The position numbers and the translations under genes are program-made. Of a DNA stretch of 64,000 nucleotides, positions 35,778 to 44,661 are shown piece after piece. The stretch spans positions 38,949 to 102,948 of the forward strand of contig JAOUMX010000001.1 of NCBI GenBank assembly GCA_029881275.1, given 5' to 3'. The stretch comes from Gammaproteobacteria bacterium. Its GTDB lineage: Bacteria > Pseudomonadota > Gammaproteobacteria > SZUA-229. The notes beneath the pieces were generated by a model that ran no database searches, was not told where the DNA came from, and worked only from the letters and a program-made list of their open reading frames with translations. Every line of letters starts with the position of its first letter. Position 1 is the stretch's first letter.

Positions 35778-36887
35778 ATGAGTTTTGATGAGCTGATTAA
35801 TAAATTAAATTTCTTTGATAGTGAGCATGCCTGGATTTCACAGGTATTTATTGTTGTACTGGTATCACTAATTTTAGATTTTGTACAAAAAATTATTTTA
35901 AATAAACTGCATATAAAACTGGAGTCAACAAAAAATCGCTGGGATGACATATTCATTGTTTCTGCGAAAAAGCCACTGAGTTACCTTATCTGGTTAATTG
36001 GTATTACATTAGCGGCTGAAATAGTCCAGCACCAAAGTGATGCTGCCATATTTTCAATTATTACACCCATTCGAGAAATTGGTGTGATTTTGATTATTAT
36101 GCTGTTTCTTCTTAAGCTTGTGCAAGGTGCTCAGGATATTTTTATTGAAAGCGAGACTAAAACAGGTGAAAAGGATTTTGATAGGCACACAGTAGAAGCT
36201 ATAGCTAAATTGTTTCGCGCTTCGATACTTATCACCGGTGCATTAGTGATGTTACAGACATTGGGATACAGTATTTCTGGCGTGTTGGCATTTGGTGGTA
36301 TTGGTGGTGTTGCTGTTGGTTTTGCCGCCAAAGATATGTTGGCTAACTTTTTTGGTGGACTAATGATTTACCTGGAGAGGCCATTTAAAATTGGAGACTG
36401 GATTCGCTCAAATGACAGAGATATAGAGGGTACGGTTGAACATATTGGTTGGCGGCTTACGCGTATTCGGACTTTTGATAAACGTCCTCTGTATGTGCCA
36501 AATTCCGTGTTCTCAAATATAGCGGTTGAAAATCCTTCGAGAATGACTAATCGACGTATATATGAAACCATTGGTATTCGATATGGCGATGCACATAAAA
36601 TGGAAAATATAGTTTCACAAGTAAAACAGATGTTACTTAGTCACCCAGAAATAGATACTCAACAAACATTAATTGTTAATTTTAATAAGTTTGCTTCTTC
36701 ATCTGTTGATTTCTTTATTTACACTTTTACCAAAACTACTGACTGGATAGCGTTTCATGAAATTAAACAGGATGTTTTGCTTAAAATTATGAGTATAATT
36801 GAGTCTAATAATGCGGAAATAGCATTTCCGACCTCGACACTGCATGTGCAGACTATGCCTAAAGTTACTGATCCGGAGATACATTAA
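35778..36887 (+). CDS. Mechanosensitive channel, MscS family
   Basis: TM helices followed by a beta-domain region ('FKIGDWIRSNDRDIEGTVEHIGWRLTRIRTFDKRPLYVPNS'). Confidence 0.85.
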   Translation: MSFDELINKLNFFDSEHAWISQVFIVVLVSLILDFVQKIILNKLHIKLESTKNRWDDIFIVSAKKPLSYLIWLIGITLAAEIVQHQSDAAIFSIITPIREIGVILIIMLFLLKLVQGAQDIFIESETKTGEKDFDRHTVEAIAKLFRASILITGALVMLQTLGYSISGVLAFGGIGGVAVGFAAKDMLANFFGGLMIYLERPFKIGDWIRSNDRDIEGTVEHIGWRLTRIRTFDKRPLYVPNSVFSNIAVENPSRMTNRRIYETIGIRYGDAHKMENIVSQVKQMLLSHPEIDTQQTLIVNFNKFASSSVDFFIYTFTKTTDWIAFHEIKQDVLLKIMSIIESNNAEIAFPTSTLHVQTMPKVTDPEIH

Positions 36888-37255
36888 TGGCAGATAAATT
36901 GCTTGTGGTTATGGCAAATACAGATTTATCCAATGCGGCTGAACTTGTGCCTCCTTTACTACAGGCAACTGTCGCTGCGGCTATGGAGTATGAGGTCGAA
37001 ATATTGCTAACAGGAAAGGCAGGGCGCCTGGCTATGAAAGGTGTTGCTGAAGAACTGGTTTTTATGGAGTCAGATAAAAAAACTGTATACGATCATATTA
37101 AACAGGCTAAAGCAGCTGGTGTTGTATTTAAAGTTTGTACGCCTGCCTTAAAGTTATGGGGTGATGATTTGATACCAGAAATTAACGAAACTGTGGGTGG
37201 TGCCTATATCATCAGTGAAGCGATGAATGATGGTGTTGTTACCTTTACATATTAA
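36887..37255 (+). CDS. DsrE/DsrF/TusD-like (YchN-fold) small protein
   Basis: 122-aa soluble protein with the 'LLVVMANTD' start typical of the DsrE-like fold and a single Cys in 'VFKVCTPAL'. ATGA overlap with the mscS stop. Confidence 0.5.
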   Translation: MADKLLVVMANTDLSNAAELVPPLLQATVAAAMEYEVEILLTGKAGRLAMKGVAEELVFMESDKKTVYDHIKQAKAAGVVFKVCTPALKLWGDDLIPEINETVGGAYIISEAMNDGVVTFTY

Positions 37256-37261
37256 ATTACT

Positions 37262-37825
37262 ATGATTACTTTAAAAAAAGCTCAGTCTGTTCTTGATAAT
37301 GCTTCTTTAATATATGATGCAACGAGTATATCAAACGCTATCGATAAAATGGCCAGTGACATAGAGGCCGAAGTTTTAAAAACTAATGATGATCCTTTGC
37401 CGGTTATTGTTATCAGTGTAATGAATGGTGGCCTAATTCTGGCAGGTCATTTATTAACCCGGTTAAATATTCCTGTGCATGTCGATTTTATTCATGCCAC
37501 GCGTTATAGAAATCAGACCAGTGGTGGTGATCTTGAATGGAAGGTTGAACCTCATCAATCGATTAATAACCGGCGTGTACTGATTGTCGATGATATTCTT
37601 GATGAAGGATTTACACTTGATGAAATCGTAAACTATTGCAGATCTCAGGGAGTCAGAAAAGTCTGGACAGCTGTTCTGGTGAAAAAAAATCATCCTCGTT
37701 TAAAAGCAGACATTAACAGTGACTTTGTTGGTTTAATGGTTGAAGATCGATATGTTTTTGGATTTGGCATGGATTATAAAGGTTATCATAGAAATCTTAA
37801 TGCAATTTATGCAGCGAATGACTAA
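37262..37825 (+). CDS. hpt: Hypoxanthine-guanine phosphoribosyltransferase (type I PRTase)
   Basis: PRPP-binding motif 'VLIVDDILDEGFTL'. Confidence 0.85.
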   Translation: MITLKKAQSVLDNASLIYDATSISNAIDKMASDIEAEVLKTNDDPLPVIVISVMNGGLILAGHLLTRLNIPVHVDFIHATRYRNQTSGGDLEWKVEPHQSINNRRVLIVDDILDEGFTLDEIVNYCRSQGVRKVWTAVLVKKNHPRLKADINSDFVGLMVEDRYVFGFGMDYKGYHRNLNAIYAAND

Positions 37826-37852: not shown

Positions 37853-38605
37853 ATGTCTTTAATAGCAATTATTGGTGGAACGGGTTTAACACAATTAGTA
37901 AACCTGGAGATTACCCACAAAGAAATGGTTAATACACCCTATGGAGCACCCTCTGGGCCACTGACGTTTGGCAAAATTTGTGGTCTGGACGTGGTCTTTC
38001 TTGCCCGCCATGGTTACCGACATACAATTCCGCCACACATGGTTAACTACCGTGCTAATTTATGGGCATTAAAAGAGGCAGGGGCAAATAAAATTATTGC
38101 AGTCGCCGCTGTCGGTGGTATTACGCCTGAAATGAAACCGGAGGCCATAGTTATTCCGGACCAGATAATTGATTATACTCATAGTCGTGCACAAACCTTC
38201 TTTGAGAGCGATCTCAGCTTTGTCACTCATATTGATTTTAGTTACCCCTATAACGATGAATTAAGGCAGATTTTGCTAAAAAGTGCTGATCAGCTTGATA
38301 TTGCGGCGGTTGATGGAGGGGTATATGCCGCTACGCAGGGTCCCAGACTGGAAACCTCAGCCGAAATAAATAAACTTGAGCGTGATGGTTGTGACATTGT
38401 GGGTATGACCGGAATGCCTGAAGCAGCGCTGGCCAGAGAGCTGGAGCTTGACTATGCGGCCTGTGCACTGGTTGTTAACTGGGCGGCAGGGCGTAATAAT
38501 GGCCATGAAATCAGCTTGACTGAGATGGAAAAATGCCTGGAAGCCGGAATGGCACGTGTTCGGCATCTGCTGGAACTGGCATTACCGATGATCTGTAACC
38601 AGTGA
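37853..38605 (+). CDS. mtnP: 5'-methylthioadenosine / 5'-methylthioinosine phosphorylase (PNP/MTAP family)
   Basis: 'IAIIGGTGL', 'VVFLARHGYRHTIPPHMVNYRANLWALK', 'VGMTGMPEAALARE'. Confidence 0.85.
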   Translation: MSLIAIIGGTGLTQLVNLEITHKEMVNTPYGAPSGPLTFGKICGLDVVFLARHGYRHTIPPHMVNYRANLWALKEAGANKIIAVAAVGGITPEMKPEAIVIPDQIIDYTHSRAQTFFESDLSFVTHIDFSYPYNDELRQILLKSADQLDIAAVDGGVYAATQGPRLETSAEINKLERDGCDIVGMTGMPEAALARELELDYAACALVVNWAAGRNNGHEISLTEMEKCLEAGMARVRHLLELALPMICNQ

Positions 38606-38692: not shown

Positions 38693-39274
38693 ATGTCACG
38701 TACAGATTCCATGCCGGAAGTTCAGGGTTTTCAGAAGATTATTCGGGCATTACGCTACCATGAAGCTTCACGCCAGTGGTTTGCTATCATATTCGTTTTG
38801 CTGGTCAGTTATTTTGGAAGTACCTCAGAAATATTGTTTCTCACTGGCTCCATTATCGCAGTAATCGGCATTATCATTCGTCTATGGGCTTCCGGTTATG
38901 TAATGAAAAATAAAGTGTTATCGACCACAGGTCCTTATGCCTATGTTAGGCATCCTTTGTATGTCGGTAATATTCTTTTATTAGCTGGTTTCTCGATAGC
39001 ATCAGGTTTGTGGTGGTCATATCTGCTTATGGCTGGGTTGCTATGGTTTTATTATCCGCCTACCATCTCATATGAAGATAATAAATTACACGGTTTATTT
39101 GGTGAAGAATGGGAAAACTGGAGTAAAGATGTAAAAGCACTAATCCCAACATTTCCAGGTAAAGCCGGTAGTCTCAAAAGTGAATGGTCACTGAAGAAAA
39201 GCTTCATTCAGAATGGTGAGCCAGTAATCGTAGCTTATCTGATCTGGTGTTTATATCTGTTATATACAAATTAA
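38693..39274 (+). CDS. Isoprenylcysteine carboxyl methyltransferase (ICMT/PEMT) family membrane methyltransferase
   Basis: Multi-TM protein with 'VRHPLYVGN' and C-terminal 'EDNKLHGLFGEEWENW' (EE-x-L-x3-FG-x2-Y/W signature). Confidence 0.75.
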   Translation: MSRTDSMPEVQGFQKIIRALRYHEASRQWFAIIFVLLVSYFGSTSEILFLTGSIIAVIGIIIRLWASGYVMKNKVLSTTGPYAYVRHPLYVGNILLLAGFSIASGLWWSYLLMAGLLWFYYPPTISYEDNKLHGLFGEEWENWSKDVKALIPTFPGKAGSLKSEWSLKKSFIQNGEPVIVAYLIWCLYLLYTN

Positions 39275-39285
39275 TATTTTACTAG

Positions 39286-39987
39286 ATGGCTCAACAACTG
39301 CCAGAAGGTATTAACGAAAATGAACTTGCTCAATGGATTGAGTCAAGTCTCGCTGAAAGCAAAAATTTCCTTTCCAGTGGTTTACAGGGTCAGACCCTGA
39401 TCTATAAAAAAATGCATCCTGCGCTGGTAATTAAAGTTCCTCACGGTAAGGGGCTAATGTACTTGCTTAATAAACGTATGCTTAAACACGAGCATGATGT
39501 TTATCTTAAGTTAAACGGCTTTGCAGGTTCACCTAAATGTTACGGTATGGTTGCTAATAAATATCTTGCGCTTGAATATATTGAGGGTAAGCCCATTAGA
39601 AATCTTCGTCCAGTAGATGAAGATAATTATTTTAAATCGTTACTTGAATATATTAAACAGTTGCATACTTATGATGTAGCGCATATGGATTTAAAGAAAA
39701 GAGATAATCTCCTCGTTAGCAGTAATGATCAACCCCGTATAATAGATTTTGGTGCAGCTGTTATATATAAGCGCGGATTTCATCCATTCAATCATTTTTG
39801 GTATGGTCTGGCCAGGCAATTTGACTATAATGCCTGGTTTGTTCATAAATATCGTGATAAACCGGAAAATACTATAGAAGAGGGTGACAGGCAGTATTAT
39901 AGTTATACGCTTGTTGAGCGTGTATCACGTAAAATAAAACGATTTTATAAAGATCGATTACGTTACGTCTTTAAATCAAGGCGTTAA
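39286..39987 (+). CDS. Small protein-kinase-fold protein (LPS/Kdo-kinase or RIO-like family)
   Basis: Invariant-Lys region 'ALVIKV', catalytic loop 'AHMDLKKRDNLLV', metal-binding 'IIDFGAA'. 233 aa. Sits 12 nt after the methyltransferase. Confidence 0.6.
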   Translation: MAQQLPEGINENELAQWIESSLAESKNFLSSGLQGQTLIYKKMHPALVIKVPHGKGLMYLLNKRMLKHEHDVYLKLNGFAGSPKCYGMVANKYLALEYIEGKPIRNLRPVDEDNYFKSLLEYIKQLHTYDVAHMDLKKRDNLLVSSNDQPRIIDFGAAVIYKRGFHPFNHFWYGLARQFDYNAWFVHKYRDKPENTIEEGDRQYYSYTLVERVSRKIKRFYKDRLRYVFKSRR

Positions 39988-40136: not shown

Positions 40137-41321
40137 ATGAAGACATTTAAAACACTAATTCCTGTTTTGTTTCTGATAGCATTGTCATTTTATGGTTATT
40201 ATAAATATGTTCAATTCCCTTCAGTTATTATAAACGGGATTGTTTTCTTACCTGTTTTTCTAGCTGTACTTGTTGTTGGTCTGGCTATTCATTTTAATCG
40301 TAGTTCGGTTTTCTTTTATGCAGTGACTATCATAATAGCTAACCTCGTGCTTGGGCTGAGCCTGGCCAGTACCGAATTAAGCTATGCATTATTGTCTATT
40401 TTTCTGCCATTATTAATTCCTGTTATAACAATGTTGCCTGAAAGAGGAATAATAAGTGCCAGGGCTATACCCGCATATACAGTATTTTTAATCGCTATTC
40501 TATTTTCTGTTGTAGTGATAATGACTTCAGCAGAATGGGCTAATTATATTTTTCTGACGAACTGGTTACCACCTCGTTATTTTGACTGGACACATCAATC
40601 ACAAACTGTTCTGATCATTTCATTTTTAGCCACTATTTATATGATTGTGCTTTATTTTCTCAGGCCTTCTCCTCATGTTGCTTCTGGATTAGGAATTATG
40701 ATCATGCTGATTGTTCAGTTACATTCTGGTCATGTTAGTAGAAGTCTTAATATATTTAGCAGTATCGCATTTTTCATGTGCCTTTATGCTGTTATGCAGG
40801 AGTCCTGGCGTATGGCATATCTTGATGAGTTAACTGAGTTACCATCAAGAAGAGCTTTGCGTGAAAAGTTTCAAAAAATAAGTGGTTTATATGCTGTTGC
40901 TATGCTGGATGTGGATCATTTTAAGAAATTCAATGATACATATGGTCATGATACTGGTGATGCGGTATTGCGTATGATCGCCACCAAATTGAAGAAGGTT
41001 ACCGGTGGTGGTTCGTATTATCGATATGGTGGCGAAGAATTTACTATCGTCTTTAACGGAAAAAGTACCAATGAAGCAAGGCTCCATCTTGAAAATCTGC
41101 GTGAATTAATTGCAACTACACCTTTTGTTATTAATCGTGCCAGTAGACGAATAAATGATAGAAAAGAAAAAAACAAAAAAAATAAATCCGTGGTGGTTAC
41201 TGTTTCAATTGGCATGGCAGATTCAACTAAAGGCTCTTCATCTCCATGGGATGTAATGAAGTCCGCGGATAAAGCATTGTATCGTGCAAAAGAAAAAGGT
41301 CGAAATTGCCTTTCCGAATGA
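40137..41321 (+). CDS. Integral-membrane diguanylate cyclase (polytopic N-terminal sensor + GGDEF)
   Basis: About 6 TM helices, then 'LDVDHFKKFNDTYGHDTGD' and an intact 'RYGGEEF'. Confidence 0.85.
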   Translation: MKTFKTLIPVLFLIALSFYGYYKYVQFPSVIINGIVFLPVFLAVLVVGLAIHFNRSSVFFYAVTIIIANLVLGLSLASTELSYALLSIFLPLLIPVITMLPERGIISARAIPAYTVFLIAILFSVVVIMTSAEWANYIFLTNWLPPRYFDWTHQSQTVLIISFLATIYMIVLYFLRPSPHVASGLGIMIMLIVQLHSGHVSRSLNIFSSIAFFMCLYAVMQESWRMAYLDELTELPSRRALREKFQKISGLYAVAMLDVDHFKKFNDTYGHDTGDAVLRMIATKLKKVTGGGSYYRYGGEEFTIVFNGKSTNEARLHLENLRELIATTPFVINRASRRINDRKEKNKKNKSVVVTVSIGMADSTKGSSSPWDVMKSADKALYRAKEKGRNCLSE

Positions 41322-41567: not shown

Positions 41568-41607
41568 GTGTGCTACGCCCCCCCATGCATGAATAGGAGA
41601 AATGTTT

Positions 41608-41949
41608 ATGATGCTTGAAATTAGTGGCAGGAAAGTTGAGACCAATACACAGGGTTTCTTGTGTAATATTGATGAATGGAGTGAATCTTATACTGAAAAA
41701 ATGGCGGAACAGGATGGTATAAAATTATACAATGACCATTGGGAATTGATTTTGTATTTCAGGGAGTATTACTATGAAACACAAAAGATACCGACAATGC
41801 ATAAGGTAGTACGCGAATTAGGTAAAAAAAATGTGCATTTTCATGATCAAAAGGAATATGAAAAACACATTTATAAACTTTTTCCAAGAGACGCTGCACA
41901 TGAAGTATGTAAACTGGCCGGTCTTCCTATGCCACAACCTGACGATTAA
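41608..41949 (+). CDS. DsrC/TusE-family protein lacking the C-terminal penultimate cysteine
   Basis: Nearly collinear with E. coli TusE ('GRKVETNTQGFL', 'LYRLFP' counterpart 'IYKLFP', 'KLAGLPMP'), but ends '...CKLAGLPMPQPDD' where TusE and DsrC end 'KIAGLPKPVKCI' / 'LPKPTGCV'. RBS 'aggaga' 7 nt upstream. Confidence 0.75.
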   Translation: MMLEISGRKVETNTQGFLCNIDEWSESYTEKMAEQDGIKLYNDHWELILYFREYYYETQKIPTMHKVVRELGKKNVHFHDQKEYEKHIYKLFPRDAAHEVCKLAGLPMPQPDD

Positions 41950-42013: not shown

Positions 42014-42979
42014 TTAAGGGATTGGTTTTAATTCTTTTTCTTGAGCAGTTGCTTTAACAAAACCATATTTTTCATAAATGTTTTGCGCCTGGTCAGATAC
42101 CAGGTATGAAAGGTAGCTTTGAGCATTGGATTGATTACGGCCGGTTTTTAATATGCCTATTGCATAGCCAACTTTATCAGACATATTGTAAGGTGCTTCG
42201 ATAGCAACACCTTCAATAGCTCGATTCTCTGATTGCGCATGTTTAACTTCGGTTGTCCAGACAATGCCTACATCTGCAAGATTATTTTCTATACGATGTG
42301 GTGTTTCTCTATGATGGCGAGCGGTAAACCAGGTCTTATCTTTAATTGCCCAGCAACTTTTGCATTTTTGGTCATTAGTAACTTTTTCATATAGGCCGAG
42401 CTGTTTCAGCATTTCCATGCCATAAAATTTGAATATGCCTTCTGTTAATGGGTTTGGGTGCGATTGCACAAGATCATCACGACCTAGATCCATAGCGCCT
42501 TTAATATTTTTAGGGTTTCCTTTTGCAACCATCAATTCCAGTTTGTTGTGAATATAGATAAGATAATCATCCATTTGATTTTTAGATTTCAATGTTTTTA
42601 AATGACCTAGATTAACACTGGCAAATAGATCAGGGTTTTGAGCTGTTTTCTGACCATTAATTTCACCTTGTTTGAGGATCTGACCTTTTAGAATTTGGCC
42701 TGGAGGAATAGTTTCAACATAGACTGTTTTGATATGTTTGTTATTGATCAGGAAATCCTTAATTAATTCTTCCATCACCATAAACTGATTACCAGCCAGG
42801 TACATGACCAGGTCTGCCGTGTAAGAATCGCCTATTTTCCCATAATCAATTTCACCATTACTATGAAAAGTCCGGTAATCATGTCCTTGACCGGCGTCAT
42901 TATCAGCCGCGTACAGCTGTGTTTGAGTCATAGCAAGAAAGAATGTAACCAGAAGGATTTGACGAATTGATTTAATCAT
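42014..42979 (-). CDS. Orphan periplasmic binding protein of the ModA (molybdate/tungstate/oxyanion, type II PBP) family
   Basis: Signal peptide 'MIKSIRQILLVTFFLAMTQTQLYA' with RBS GGAGG. ModA-like blocks 'NPDLFASVN', 'LADVGIVWTTEV' and C-terminal 'AQNIYEKYGF'. No ABC permease or ATPase genes nearby. Confidence 0.65.
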   Translation of the reverse strand: MIKSIRQILLVTFFLAMTQTQLYAADNDAGQGHDYRTFHSNGEIDYGKIGDSYTADLVMYLAGNQFMVMEELIKDFLINNKHIKTVYVETIPPGQILKGQILKQGEINGQKTAQNPDLFASVNLGHLKTLKSKNQMDDYLIYIHNKLELMVAKGNPKNIKGAMDLGRDDLVQSHPNPLTEGIFKFYGMEMLKQLGLYEKVTNDQKCKSCWAIKDKTWFTARHHRETPHRIENNLADVGIVWTTEVKHAQSENRAIEGVAIEAPYNMSDKVGYAIGILKTGRNQSNAQSYLSYLVSDQAQNIYEKYGFVKATAQEKELKPIP

Positions 42980-43149
42980 TTTTTGGCCTCCATGAACCAT
43001 TAAATTAGTTTTCTGGTTTAATGCCAGAAAATTTAGCAGATACTCCAGATATAGATGCACTAACAGTGCTATTTATTCCATTAAACTAATTTTATTTGTG
43101 TAATGATATGTGGCTTGATATGTAAAAAACGGTATATGGAGCCGGGTGT

Positions 43150-44661
43150 TTATGCAAGAGGGAGTTCGAACCAGAAAATACTGCCAGATGCCGGTTCGCT
43201 TTCGACGCCAATAGAACCATTCATTGCTTCAATTAACTGTTTGCTTATATGCAAACCAACGCCGATTCCTGAAATAGTGCCCTGTTTCTGATCTAGTCGT
43301 TCAAAAGGGGTGAACATGAGTGATAGATTCTCTTTGGATATACCAAGACCAGTATCTTTAATTTCGATTCGTAATTTATTATCTGATTTGATAAAACAGC
43401 TAACTATAACACGTCCATGTTCTCTGTTGAATTTTACAGCATTGGTTATAAGATTAATTAAAACCTGACGAAAACATTGTTCATCAGCTTTTACCATCAA
43501 TGTTGTGTCTGTAATTGTGTTATCTATGGTTATCTGATTTATATTGACCATGGTGGTTAGAATTCGAGTAATGCATTCTCGACTTATATTGGCTACGCAA
43601 AGTGATTGAGTATTTATATTTTGTATTTTGCTTTCAATATGTGAAAGGCTGAGAGCTTGATTAATTATATCCAGTAAATGGTTGCCGGCATCAAGAATAT
43701 ATCCTGACCACTCCTGTCGTTCAGATGAATTTGGTGTAACTTGCATTTCCATTAACTGGGAAAATCCAAGGATGGCATTCAGTGGGGTGCGCAATTCGTG
43801 ACTCATGATTTCCAGAAACTGGCTTTTTGCCTGATTTGCATTTTCTGCTTTTATGGTAGCTTTTAAAAGGTTTTGCTGTGACTCTTTTAGTTGTTTTGCC
43901 ATTCTGTTAAACGCAATTGCTAATAGTCCAAGTTCGTCTTCTATTTTCACATCAATTGATGTATCAAAGTTGCCTTTTCCAATTTCGATTGATGTTTTCT
44001 TTAGATTATTTATAGGAATAGAGATACTGCGTACGATTAGAAATGATAGTAGTGCTATTAATATTAATGATATAGCTATTGCTAAAATAGTCGCATTATT
44101 GGCATTCGAAATAATCTGATTAACGGAATTTTTCTTTTCTTCCACTTCTTCTTCTTCTATTTCAATTAATTCACTAAACAGGAGAAATGCCTGGTTCTGA
44201 AATTCGTTTATTTCCTGGAGGATTTCATTCTTATTATTTGAGTCGGTGGTTTCGGTGGTGAGTATTTTATTTACAAAAGCGTTTTGATTGTTAAAGATGC
44301 TGTATTTAGTTATCCATTTTTCCATATTAGGTGCGCAAGGTTCATCTGCGGCTTTTGCTGTATTATAAGCGTCTTTATAGTTGGCTAGTTCAGCGTCAAT
44401 TTTTGTAAGTAGAGTCTGAATTTCATTTTTACTAACACTTTCTTGTGATCTTATGTAATTGGTTAGTTTAGATGATAGATAGGCATGATATGATGACATT
44501 TTTTCACCTGCTCTAAGTGCTAGCAGGGGGTCTTTGTGTAAATAATTAAAGGCATGACCAATACTGTTTAGATTGTTGACGCCAATATAGCCGATAATTG
44601 TCATAGCTATACCGAATATCATGCATAAAATTAATAATTTATGACTGATTTTAATATTCAT
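43150..44661 (-). CDS. Sensor histidine kinase: TM, about 160-aa periplasmic helical sensor, TM, HAMP, HisKA, HATPase; no receiver
   Basis: H-box 'MSHELRTPLNAILGFSQLM', N-box 'LINLITNAVKF', G-boxes 'DTGLGI' and 'GSIGVESEPASGS'. Two hydrophobic helices flank the sensor region. Confidence 0.85.
   Translation of the reverse strand: MNIKISHKLLILCMIFGIAMTIIGYIGVNNLNSIGHAFNYLHKDPLLALRAGEKMSSYHAYLSSKLTNYIRSQESVSKNEIQTLLTKIDAELANYKDAYNTAKAADEPCAPNMEKWITKYSIFNNQNAFVNKILTTETTDSNNKNEILQEINEFQNQAFLLFSELIEIEEEEVEEKKNSVNQIISNANNATILAIAISLILIALLSFLIVRSISIPINNLKKTSIEIGKGNFDTSIDVKIEDELGLLAIAFNRMAKQLKESQQNLLKATIKAENANQAKSQFLEIMSHELRTPLNAILGFSQLMEMQVTPNSSERQEWSGYILDAGNHLLDIINQALSLSHIESKIQNINTQSLCVANISRECITRILTTMVNINQITIDNTITDTTLMVKADEQCFRQVLINLITNAVKFNREHGRVIVSCFIKSDNKLRIEIKDTGLGISKENLSLMFTPFERLDQKQGTISGIGVGLHISKQLIEAMNGSIGVESEPASGSIFWFELPLA

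Follow-up and report, generated by a model that had tools for sequence, protein, structure and literature searches.

What do a small membrane methyltransferase and a small kinase do together, when their genes are found side by side in one locus after another? The question is raised by a 64,000-nucleotide stretch of DNA from a Gammaproteobacteria bacterium (GTDB lineage SZUA-229; GenBank assembly GCA_029881275.1, contig JAOUMX010000001.1, positions 38,949 to 102,948 of the forward strand), hereafter called the window. On its plus strand, a gene for a membrane protein of the ICMT/PEMT methyltransferase type (MT) is followed at once by a gene for a minimal protein kinase (Table 1). An earlier note, made from the sequence alone, had placed these two open reading frames (ORFs), quoted their motifs, and proposed a translationally linked module with a kinase resembling the Kdo kinases of lipopolysaccharide (LPS). 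Both ORFs and all of the quoted motifs were present as described.

Pairing of the methyltransferase and kinase genes across genomes

We scanned one genome per GTDB species for the kinase and obtained 64 loci. With earlier loci counted in, tblastn placed the MT gene directly upstream of the kinase gene in all 65 kinase-seeded loci having upstream DNA, with identities of 43-88% for the MT and 39-71% for the kinase. A metagenome scan seeded with the MT gave 80 loci, and among the 72 with at least 400 nt of downstream sequence the kinase gene stood directly downstream in 71. Four divergent kinase homologues on long contigs also had a PEMT/ICMT gene of 193-196 aa immediately upstream (4/4). These results confirm that the adjacency of MT and kinase is obligate in both directions, far beyond chance, and support a conserved two-gene module. 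The pairing, whose absence from other genomes the earlier note had allowed for, recurs across genomes.

The sole exception, L140 (L140:228-800), encodes an MT without a downstream kinase; it is divergent and lies on a high-GC contig. The N-terminus of this MT lacks LRYHExSRQWF, a motif conserved in the kinase-paired MTs.

The flanks of the pair differ between loci: an MTAP/HGPRT/DsrE set was found at some and gyrA/DUF1249/GalT at the P0084 locus (49% identity). Clustering of all ORFs of 69 loci revealed no third conserved gene. The pair members were present in 67 and 64 loci, and the next family, which reflects lineage-specific synteny, reached only 23 of 67. No LPS gene was conserved beside the pair across the 67 loci. 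Pairwise distances of the MT and the kinase were correlated (r = 0.74), with the kinase evolving about 1.5 times faster, and we read this correlation as co-evolution of the two proteins.

All hosts are metagenome-assembled genomes (MAGs), labelled Gammaproteobacteria, Thiotrichales/Thiotrichaceae, Acidiferrobacterales and, in a few cases, Desulfobacterales; neither the 65 GTDB species representatives nor the named protein clusters included a cultured host. The Galathealinum endosymbiont genome GCA_003349885.1 and a 2.5-Mb contig carry the pair as well. Eight loci (L046, L047, L052, L054-L057 and L060) come from MAGs labelled Desulfobacteraceae, Desulfobacterales, Deltaproteobacteria (L055, L056) or Thermodesulfobacteriota, and their MTs and kinases are 45-52% and 44-48% identical to those of the window, respectively. 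Either inter-phylum transfer or a binning error would account for the pair in these loci.

Two candidate sequences were rejected in the course of this work. P0351 (376 aa), which contains PEMT and kinase-like segments and was considered as a natural MT-kinase fusion, consists of frameshifted, out-of-frame stretches on a high-GC contig, and as a frameshifted read-through it shows adjacency only. P0285 proved to be an artefactual extended ORF.

Features of the two proteins and of their junction

The MT carries VRHPLYVGN at residues 85-93 and EDNKLHGLFGEEWENW at residues 128-143. It scored above the cut-offs of two Pfam models, PEMT PF04191 (35.7 bits against a cut-off of 25; 1.3e-8, the best Pfam match) and ICMT PF04140 (26.9 against 24), and by its sequence it belongs to the ICMT/PEMT membrane methyltransferase superfamily. 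The hydropathy profile shows hydrophobic stretches near residues 29-47, 50-68, 88-120 (a hairpin) and 176-192, and the helices of an AlphaFold 2 (AF2) model coincide with them, giving about five membrane helices. The protein is therefore polytopic, as had been claimed, and it falls in the size class of the 194-aa Ma-ICMT. In 100 non-redundant MT sequences, RHPLYVGN and YEDNKL..FGEEWE vary little or not at all, and RHPLYVGN and the acidic motif align to the same motifs of ICMT and AtTam46. The MT is predicted to be an S-adenosylmethionine (SAM)-dependent methyltransferase and looks catalytically competent. Its cofactor-site motifs, RHPLYVGN and YYPPTISYEDNKL...FGEEWE, are predicted to be cytoplasmic; judged by where its basic residues lie and by what is known of the family, the N-terminus would be on that side together with the cofactor site.

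Conservation of the MT is high: alignment columns average 82% identity over 33 sequences, and most of the clade is about 70% identical to the window MT. Identity of this order across taxonomic orders suggests an important, invariant substrate. A conserved N-terminal segment and a C-terminal WSxxxSxxQNGEP motif are specific to the subfamily. When the MT family profile was compared with the PDB, only four sequences were matched, namely AtTam46 (3e-7), two ICMT entries (~5.5e-5) and Ma-ICMT (2.4e-3), all of them aligning across the RHPxYxG...E..FG cofactor region. Among NCBIfam models, LmtA (TIGR04571) was the best match of the window MT (3.8e-11), followed by MddA and the isoprenylcysteine methyltransferase equivalog, and LmtA was ahead of ICMT and MddA in all 33 family members tested (best E 1.1e-14). 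Assignment as an MddA methanethiol S-methyltransferase (NF045656; 26.6 bits against a cut-off of 270) or as a protein-S-isoprenylcysteine O-methyltransferase equivalog (NF040696; 26.4 against 160) was rejected, and by curated thresholds the MT is not LmtA, MddA or a protein ICMT.

The kinase carries ALVIKV at residues 46-51, HMDLKKRDNLLV at 133-144 and IIDFGAA at 152-158. Residues K50, E69, H133, D135, N141, D154 (of the DFG motif) and G156 are invariant in 34 family sequences and in 100 non-redundant sequences; given these invariant catalytic residues, the protein is predicted to bind ATP and transfer phosphate. An AF2 model (pLDDT 93.2) shows a bilobal kinase fold: the N-lobe has five strands and an alpha-C helix, the C-lobe is short, and one helix stands at the N-terminus and a long one at the C-terminus. 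The minimal protein-kinase fold described in the earlier note was thus borne out. The only family to exceed its cut-off was Pfam Pkinase (PF00069 clan; 38.4 against 31.7 bits), over residues 91-164 of the catalytic core. RIO-like in architecture, the kinase belongs to the protein-kinase-like superfamily, and a protein named 'MAG: hypothetical protein OEY87_05920 [Gammaproteobacteria bacterium]' matches it at 100% identity.

Only about ten residues (GFHPFNH) separate the DFG motif of the kinase from the next helix, the APE motif is missing, and about 78 residues follow the DFG motif. Assignment as a canonical Hanks-type Ser/Thr kinase was rejected, as the activation segment, the P+1 loop and the C-lobe subdomains for protein substrates (alphaF-alphaI) are all absent. 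Matches of the kinase profile in the PDB end at about residue 160, and its catalytic loop, HMDLKK[KR]DN, has one residue more than the canonical HRDLKPEN. No hydrophobic or transmembrane segment was found in the kinase (maximum 19-residue Kyte-Doolittle mean 0.75). Its isoelectric point (pI) is 9.5; the last 34 residues have a pI of 10.7 and the highest helical hydrophobic moment of the protein, and residues ~205-232 form a basic amphipathic helix, which may bind the membrane or a partner.

Across the 34 members of the kinase family, matches were recorded to Pkinase in 34, ABC1 in 22, APH in 15, Kdo in 6 and RIO1 in 4, with ABC1 and Kdo counted at E<=0.01. For the window kinase, the ABC1/UbiB model (PF03109) gave 20.1 bits (E 3.9e-4), below its cut-off of 22.9. 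Weak NCBIfam matches to PRK09188, PRK12274, Bud32, lanthionine-synthetase kinase domains, RfaY and KdkA were all far below their cut-offs. By thresholds or by defining features, the kinase stands outside the RIO, Kdo/WaaP, ABC1 and canonical Hanks families.

The two genes are closely spaced. The MT stop codon is TAA (39272-39274) and the kinase ATG starts at 39286; the spacing of 'twelve nt' given in the earlier note holds when counted to the A of the ATG, and the spacer itself is 11 nt. In 106 complete pairs the gap ranged from -1 to 37 nt. The window junction, TATTTTACTAG, contains no Shine-Dalgarno (SD)-like motif and no purine-rich ribosome-binding motif. Scanning positions -20 to -4 revealed an SD-like motif upstream of 2 of 106 kinase starts, compared with 43 of 106 MT starts and 12% of random background windows. 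The nominal p-values for this depletion are 4e-13 (against MT starts) and 3e-4 (against background), with the caveat that the conserved 3' end of the MT gene reaches into the scanned stretch and constrains its sequence too. These junction features fit a kinase that is translated by termination-reinitiation and so made in step with the MT, and the window junction is probably a site of translational coupling. The translational linkage put forward in the earlier note is plausible from the gaps and the SD statistics.

Table 1. Coordinates of the gene pair, its junction and neighbouring features in the window
Feature	Coordinates	Strand	Description
MT gene	38693..39274	+	193 aa, ATG start; predicted ICMT/PEMT-superfamily integral-membrane SAM-dependent methyltransferase, about five transmembrane helices
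Kinase gene	39286..39987	+	233 aa, ATG start; soluble minimal protein-kinase-fold enzyme, RIO-like architecture
Junction	39275..39285	+	11 nt, MT stop codon to kinase start codon; sequence TATTTTACTAG
DsrE-like gene	36887-37255		upstream block
Phosphoribosyltransferase gene	37262-37825		upstream block
MTA/purine nucleoside phosphorylase-family gene	37853-38605		upstream block
Terminator-like hairpin	39965-39984		weak (7 pairs, 3 G-C); located over the last nucleotides of the kinase gene
GGDEF gene	40137-41321		394 aa; polytopic membrane domain at the N-terminus, GGDEF diguanylate cyclase domain at the C-terminus
DsrC/TusE-like gene	41602-41949	+	
SBP_bac_11 gene	42014-43060	-	periplasmic binding protein
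Histidine kinase gene	43150-44661	-	4HB_MCP/HAMP/HisKA

Genomic surroundings and the wider small-kinase family

The block upstream of the pair, from the DsrE-like gene to the nucleoside phosphorylase-family gene, is syntenic in just 16-19 of 67 loci, and for this reason we treat it as lineage synteny outside the module. After the pair, an AT-rich spacer of 149 nt leads to the GGDEF gene, which was not seen as a conserved neighbour among the other loci. A DsrC/TusE-like gene, a periplasmic binding protein gene and a histidine kinase gene follow. The sulfur-relay genes of the window are compatible with a sulfur-oxidising host.

An Rfam scan of the whole 64-kb window returned no family at the gathering score, tRNAs included, and no riboswitch or leader. 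A promoter scan of the plus strand between 38605 and 38693 found nothing convincing. Three terminator-like sites were observed in the region against a shuffle expectation of 1.4 +/- 1.2; as this count is near expectation, the hairpin at the end of the kinase gene is unreliable evidence for the end of an operon.

A profile search of 1.84 billion representatives returned 75 clusters at E<1e-30 and thousands of weaker matches. The alignment of the kinase clade (A1) and that of the wider family (A3) place the clade within a large family of bacterial small kinases of ~205-260 aa, clearly homologous from end to end (hhalign probability 100%, E 1e-53, 196 columns), which shares with A1 a C-terminal D-x-N-A-[WY]-x-K-x-K motif. 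The best NCBIfam matches of the wider family are PRK12274 and PRK09188 ('serine/threonine protein kinase'), whose cut-offs are never reached. In five contexts from the wider family (P0380, P0405, P0456, P0404 and P0261) no PEMT/ICMT neighbour was found; because these five members are unpaired, the MT-kinase pairing marks a specific clade. The gene downstream of P0261 encodes a GDT1 cation transporter.

Other members of the wider family show other arrangements. In all three loci examined (L152, L153 and L156), unpaired small kinases of the Xanthomonadales type are oriented divergently from a Zn_ribbon_8 gene. At L152 and L153 the gene after Zn_ribbon_8 encodes an aspartyl-tRNA synthetase, and a gene for an NAD-dependent sugar epimerase is convergent with the kinase gene; the L156 contig, at 2 kb, is too short to show either. 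Three proteins from high-GC sequences (P0243, P0246 and P0256; 409-427 aa) have a kinase with a C-terminal extension of ~200 aa that carries repeated 'RFGD..LR'-type motifs and has no Pfam match.

Some distant relatives of the kinase touch the Pfam models Kdo (PF06293) and WaaY (PF06176). In addition, P0354 (589 aa), recovered in the search of representatives, is a GT9 heptosyltransferase (PF01075, residues 76-296) fused to a distant kinase relative (~400-571). This fusion suggests that some small-kinase clades act on the LPS inner core, and besides the family touches it is the only tangible, if weak, link to LPS on the kinase side.

Candidate functions and comparison with known systems

The mechanism we propose starts from a co-translated, self-contained two-gene module, in which the kinase would be made in step with the MT. 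The MT would lie in the inner membrane as a five-helix ICMT-fold enzyme with its SAM site on the cytoplasmic side, and the kinase would dock at the cytoplasmic membrane face via its basic amphipathic C-terminal helix and/or on the MT. Both would modify one shared membrane-embedded substrate. In a first step, the kinase would use ATP to phosphorylate a hydroxyl group of a lipid or glycolipid in the envelope, for which lipid A/core, a polyprenol-linked glycan and other glycolipids are candidates; in a second step, the MT would use SAM to O-methylate that phosphate, giving a charge-neutralising methyl-phosphate cap. This chemistry is the most economical and has two precedents, LmtA, which is the best curated match of the MT, and WbdD, both of which are compared below. 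Physical association of the two proteins, the sharing and nature of the substrate and the order of the reactions are what we infer in this scheme. That MT and kinase jointly act on one membrane substrate is the reading we favour, and we regard it as possible while short of likely. Its most specific form, a split and membrane-embedded counterpart of WbdD in which the kinase phosphorylates an envelope glycolipid and the MT converts the product to a methyl-phosphate ester, is doubtful.

Several observations weigh against joint action on an envelope lipid. LPS, capsule or lipid gene clusters were never found around the pair in ~140 loci. The LmtA score of the MT is 43.2 bits against a cut-off of 325, so that the MT is not an LmtA orthologue, and the match is limited to the generic cofactor-binding core. 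The AF2 model of the MT is of moderate confidence only (pLDDT 74.7). The lysine in the catalytic loop of the kinase (HMDLKK) is one that protein Ser/Thr kinases typically carry, RIO-type kinases serve mainly as ATPase switches and not as metabolic kinases, and the window kinase specifically resembles neither WaaP nor KdkA. Furthermore, the loci are phylogenetically related and some are duplicates of one contig, so that the counts and p-values reported here overstate independence.

A somewhat unlikely but serious alternative is that the kinase is a regulatory or chaperone-like partner in a stoichiometric complex with the MT, where it would phosphorylate a cytoplasmic segment of the MT or act as an ATP-driven switch or lipid-handling ATPase. 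The RIO-like structure of the kinase, its ABC1 similarity, the SD-less coupling at the junction and the conserved cytoplasmic N-terminus of the MT all agree with such a role, which has analogues in RIO and Bud32 within their complexes and in UbiB/COQ8 beside quinone methyltransferases. On the other side, no invariant Ser/Thr phospho-acceptor was found in the cytoplasmic N-terminus of the MT in 100 non-redundant pairs (S26 is conserved in fewer than 90%), and S166 and S170, although invariant, occur as well in the L140 protein, which has no kinase beside it. With ABC1 and RIO1 the window kinase scores below the Pfam cut-offs, and the correlation between the N-terminal motif and the presence of a kinase comes from one case only.

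Two further alternatives concern other substrates. If the MT were a PEMT-type N-methyltransferase making mono- or dimethyl-phosphatidylethanolamine (PE) or phosphatidylcholine, the kinase might supply or regulate a step of head-group synthesis. We consider such a phospholipid pathway improbable. PF04191 is the best Pfam match of the MT, but it is a broad model, and the ICMT and LmtA models cover the same region. APH, which is touched by 15 of the 34 kinase family members, lies in the choline/ethanolamine kinase fold superfamily; Choline_kinase itself (PF01633), however, was matched by one of 31 distant relatives (0.0064) and by no member of the A1 family. Marine-sediment bacteria commonly contain methylated PE lipids, yet to our knowledge bacterial PE methylation requires no kinase. 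The chances are similarly slim for a protein-directed pair, in which the MT would methyl-esterify a protein carboxyl as ICMT does and the kinase would phosphorylate the same or a related protein in signalling or maturation: a substrate protein or peptide would have no conserved third gene to come from, the activation segment and C-lobe elements with which kinases bind protein substrates are missing from this one, and we know of no CaaX-type prenylation in these bacteria. An anti-phage defence or toxin-antitoxin-like two-gene cassette is scarcely credible, since the weak PADLOC matches of the kinase to the PD-T4-6, MkoA and mad6 kinase models (best 6.1e-9) are confined to the generic catalytic core (~84-161), PADLOC gave no match for the MT, the pair lies among housekeeping genes with long-range synteny and not in variable islands, and the MT keeps ~70% identity from one order to another whereas defence genes evolve fast.

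Hardly any bacterial protein of the ICMT/PEMT family has been characterised, and the same is true of the small RIO-like or 'PRK12274-like' kinases, although both groups are numerous. The present clade locks one of each together in ~140 loci from two phyla-level groups, which offers a handle on function for both families, and a module of only two genes is amenable to heterologous expression. If the pair places a methyl-phosphate or similar group on an envelope lipid, it would add a new pathway of envelope remodelling in sulfur bacteria that are abundant in sediments and as symbionts. As a split WbdD, it would make methyl-phosphate capping a widespread means of neutralising envelope charge in marine sulfur-cycle bacteria and give a bacterial RIO-like kinase clade its first function. 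With a regulatory or chaperone-like kinase, it would provide a bacterial RIO/UbiB-style ATPase partner of a membrane enzyme.

Among known systems, the RIO kinases Rio1, Rio2 and RIOK3 are the closest structures to the kinase model, at 17-20% identity. The kinase shares their compact architecture, with an N-terminal helix and a kinase core without an activation loop. It differs in that PF01163 is unmatched by the window kinase and is matched by only four of the 34 family members (best 9.5e-7), and in that a canonical DFG as the metal-binding motif and an HMDLKK[KR]DN catalytic loop replace the RIO-type motifs as these are commonly described. Its hosts are bacterial, its partner is membrane-bound, and it has no ribosome-biogenesis context.

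WaaP, WaaY and KdkA are also small protein-kinase-fold enzymes of similar length, and they act on an envelope glycolipid at the cytoplasmic membrane face. PF06293 gave no match to the window kinase at E<=0.1 and matched six of the 34 family members at E<=0.01 (best 5.5e-4). In NCBIfam, KdkA (NF002475) scored 19.7 bits against a cut-off of 142 (3.3e-4) and RfaY (NF007684) 22.2 against 248 (9.4e-5). The hhalign probability of A1 was 1.9% with E. coli WaaP and 68.9% with E. coli WaaY, the latter over 60 columns of the catalytic core only. These scores argue against the 'LPS/Kdo-kinase-like' label of the earlier note, for which RIO-like is the better description. Of the profile searches that the note had suggested, those for the MT (PF04140/PF04191) gave scores above the cut-offs, and those for the kinase (PF06293 and PF01163) left the window protein unmatched. 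A weak link to LPS survives in LmtA as the best match of all 33 MTs and in the GT9 fusion of P0354.

On the MT side, Ma-ICMT and eukaryotic ICMT (PDB 4a2n, 5v7p) and AtTam46 (8xku/8xkv) are only 14-19% identical to the MT. No prenyl-protein pathway is evident for the MT, which also differs from these enzymes in its subfamily-specific N-terminal and C-terminal motifs. We know of no partner kinase for LmtA. This small polytopic ICMT/Ste14-like enzyme uses SAM to methylate the lipid A 1-phosphate of Leptospira interrogans (PMC4402001) and is the one characterised ICMT-family enzyme that methylates a phosphate (PMC4402001; PMC10248169); methylated lipid A phosphate has so far been described in Leptospira only (PMC10248169). 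The likeness lies in LmtA being the best NCBIfam match of every MT tested and in its acting on an anionic oxygen of a membrane lipid, and the difference in a match that spans only profile positions 76-171 of 252.

The methyltransferase domain of WbdD is a soluble Rossmann-type domain. Among the top 60 matches of the kinase, by sequence or by structure, WbdD did not appear, and no O-antigen cluster context was seen for the pair in the loci clustered. A search of the literature, in a limited library and hence giving absence of evidence only, found no description of an MT-kinase pairing. WbdD is a single polypeptide, with its soluble methyltransferase domain, kinase and coiled coil encoded in an O-antigen cluster, whereas here two genes are involved and the MT is a membrane protein with a predicted ICMT fold. 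In function, WbdD, the chain terminator of E. coli O9a, phosphorylates a membrane-linked glycan and then methylates that phosphate (PMC3482155). It thereby combines a eukaryotic-type kinase with a SAM methyltransferase at the cytoplasmic membrane (PMC3482155), and it serves as the functional model for joint action on one membrane substrate. The pair described here brings together two known enzyme superfamilies in a combination not previously described.

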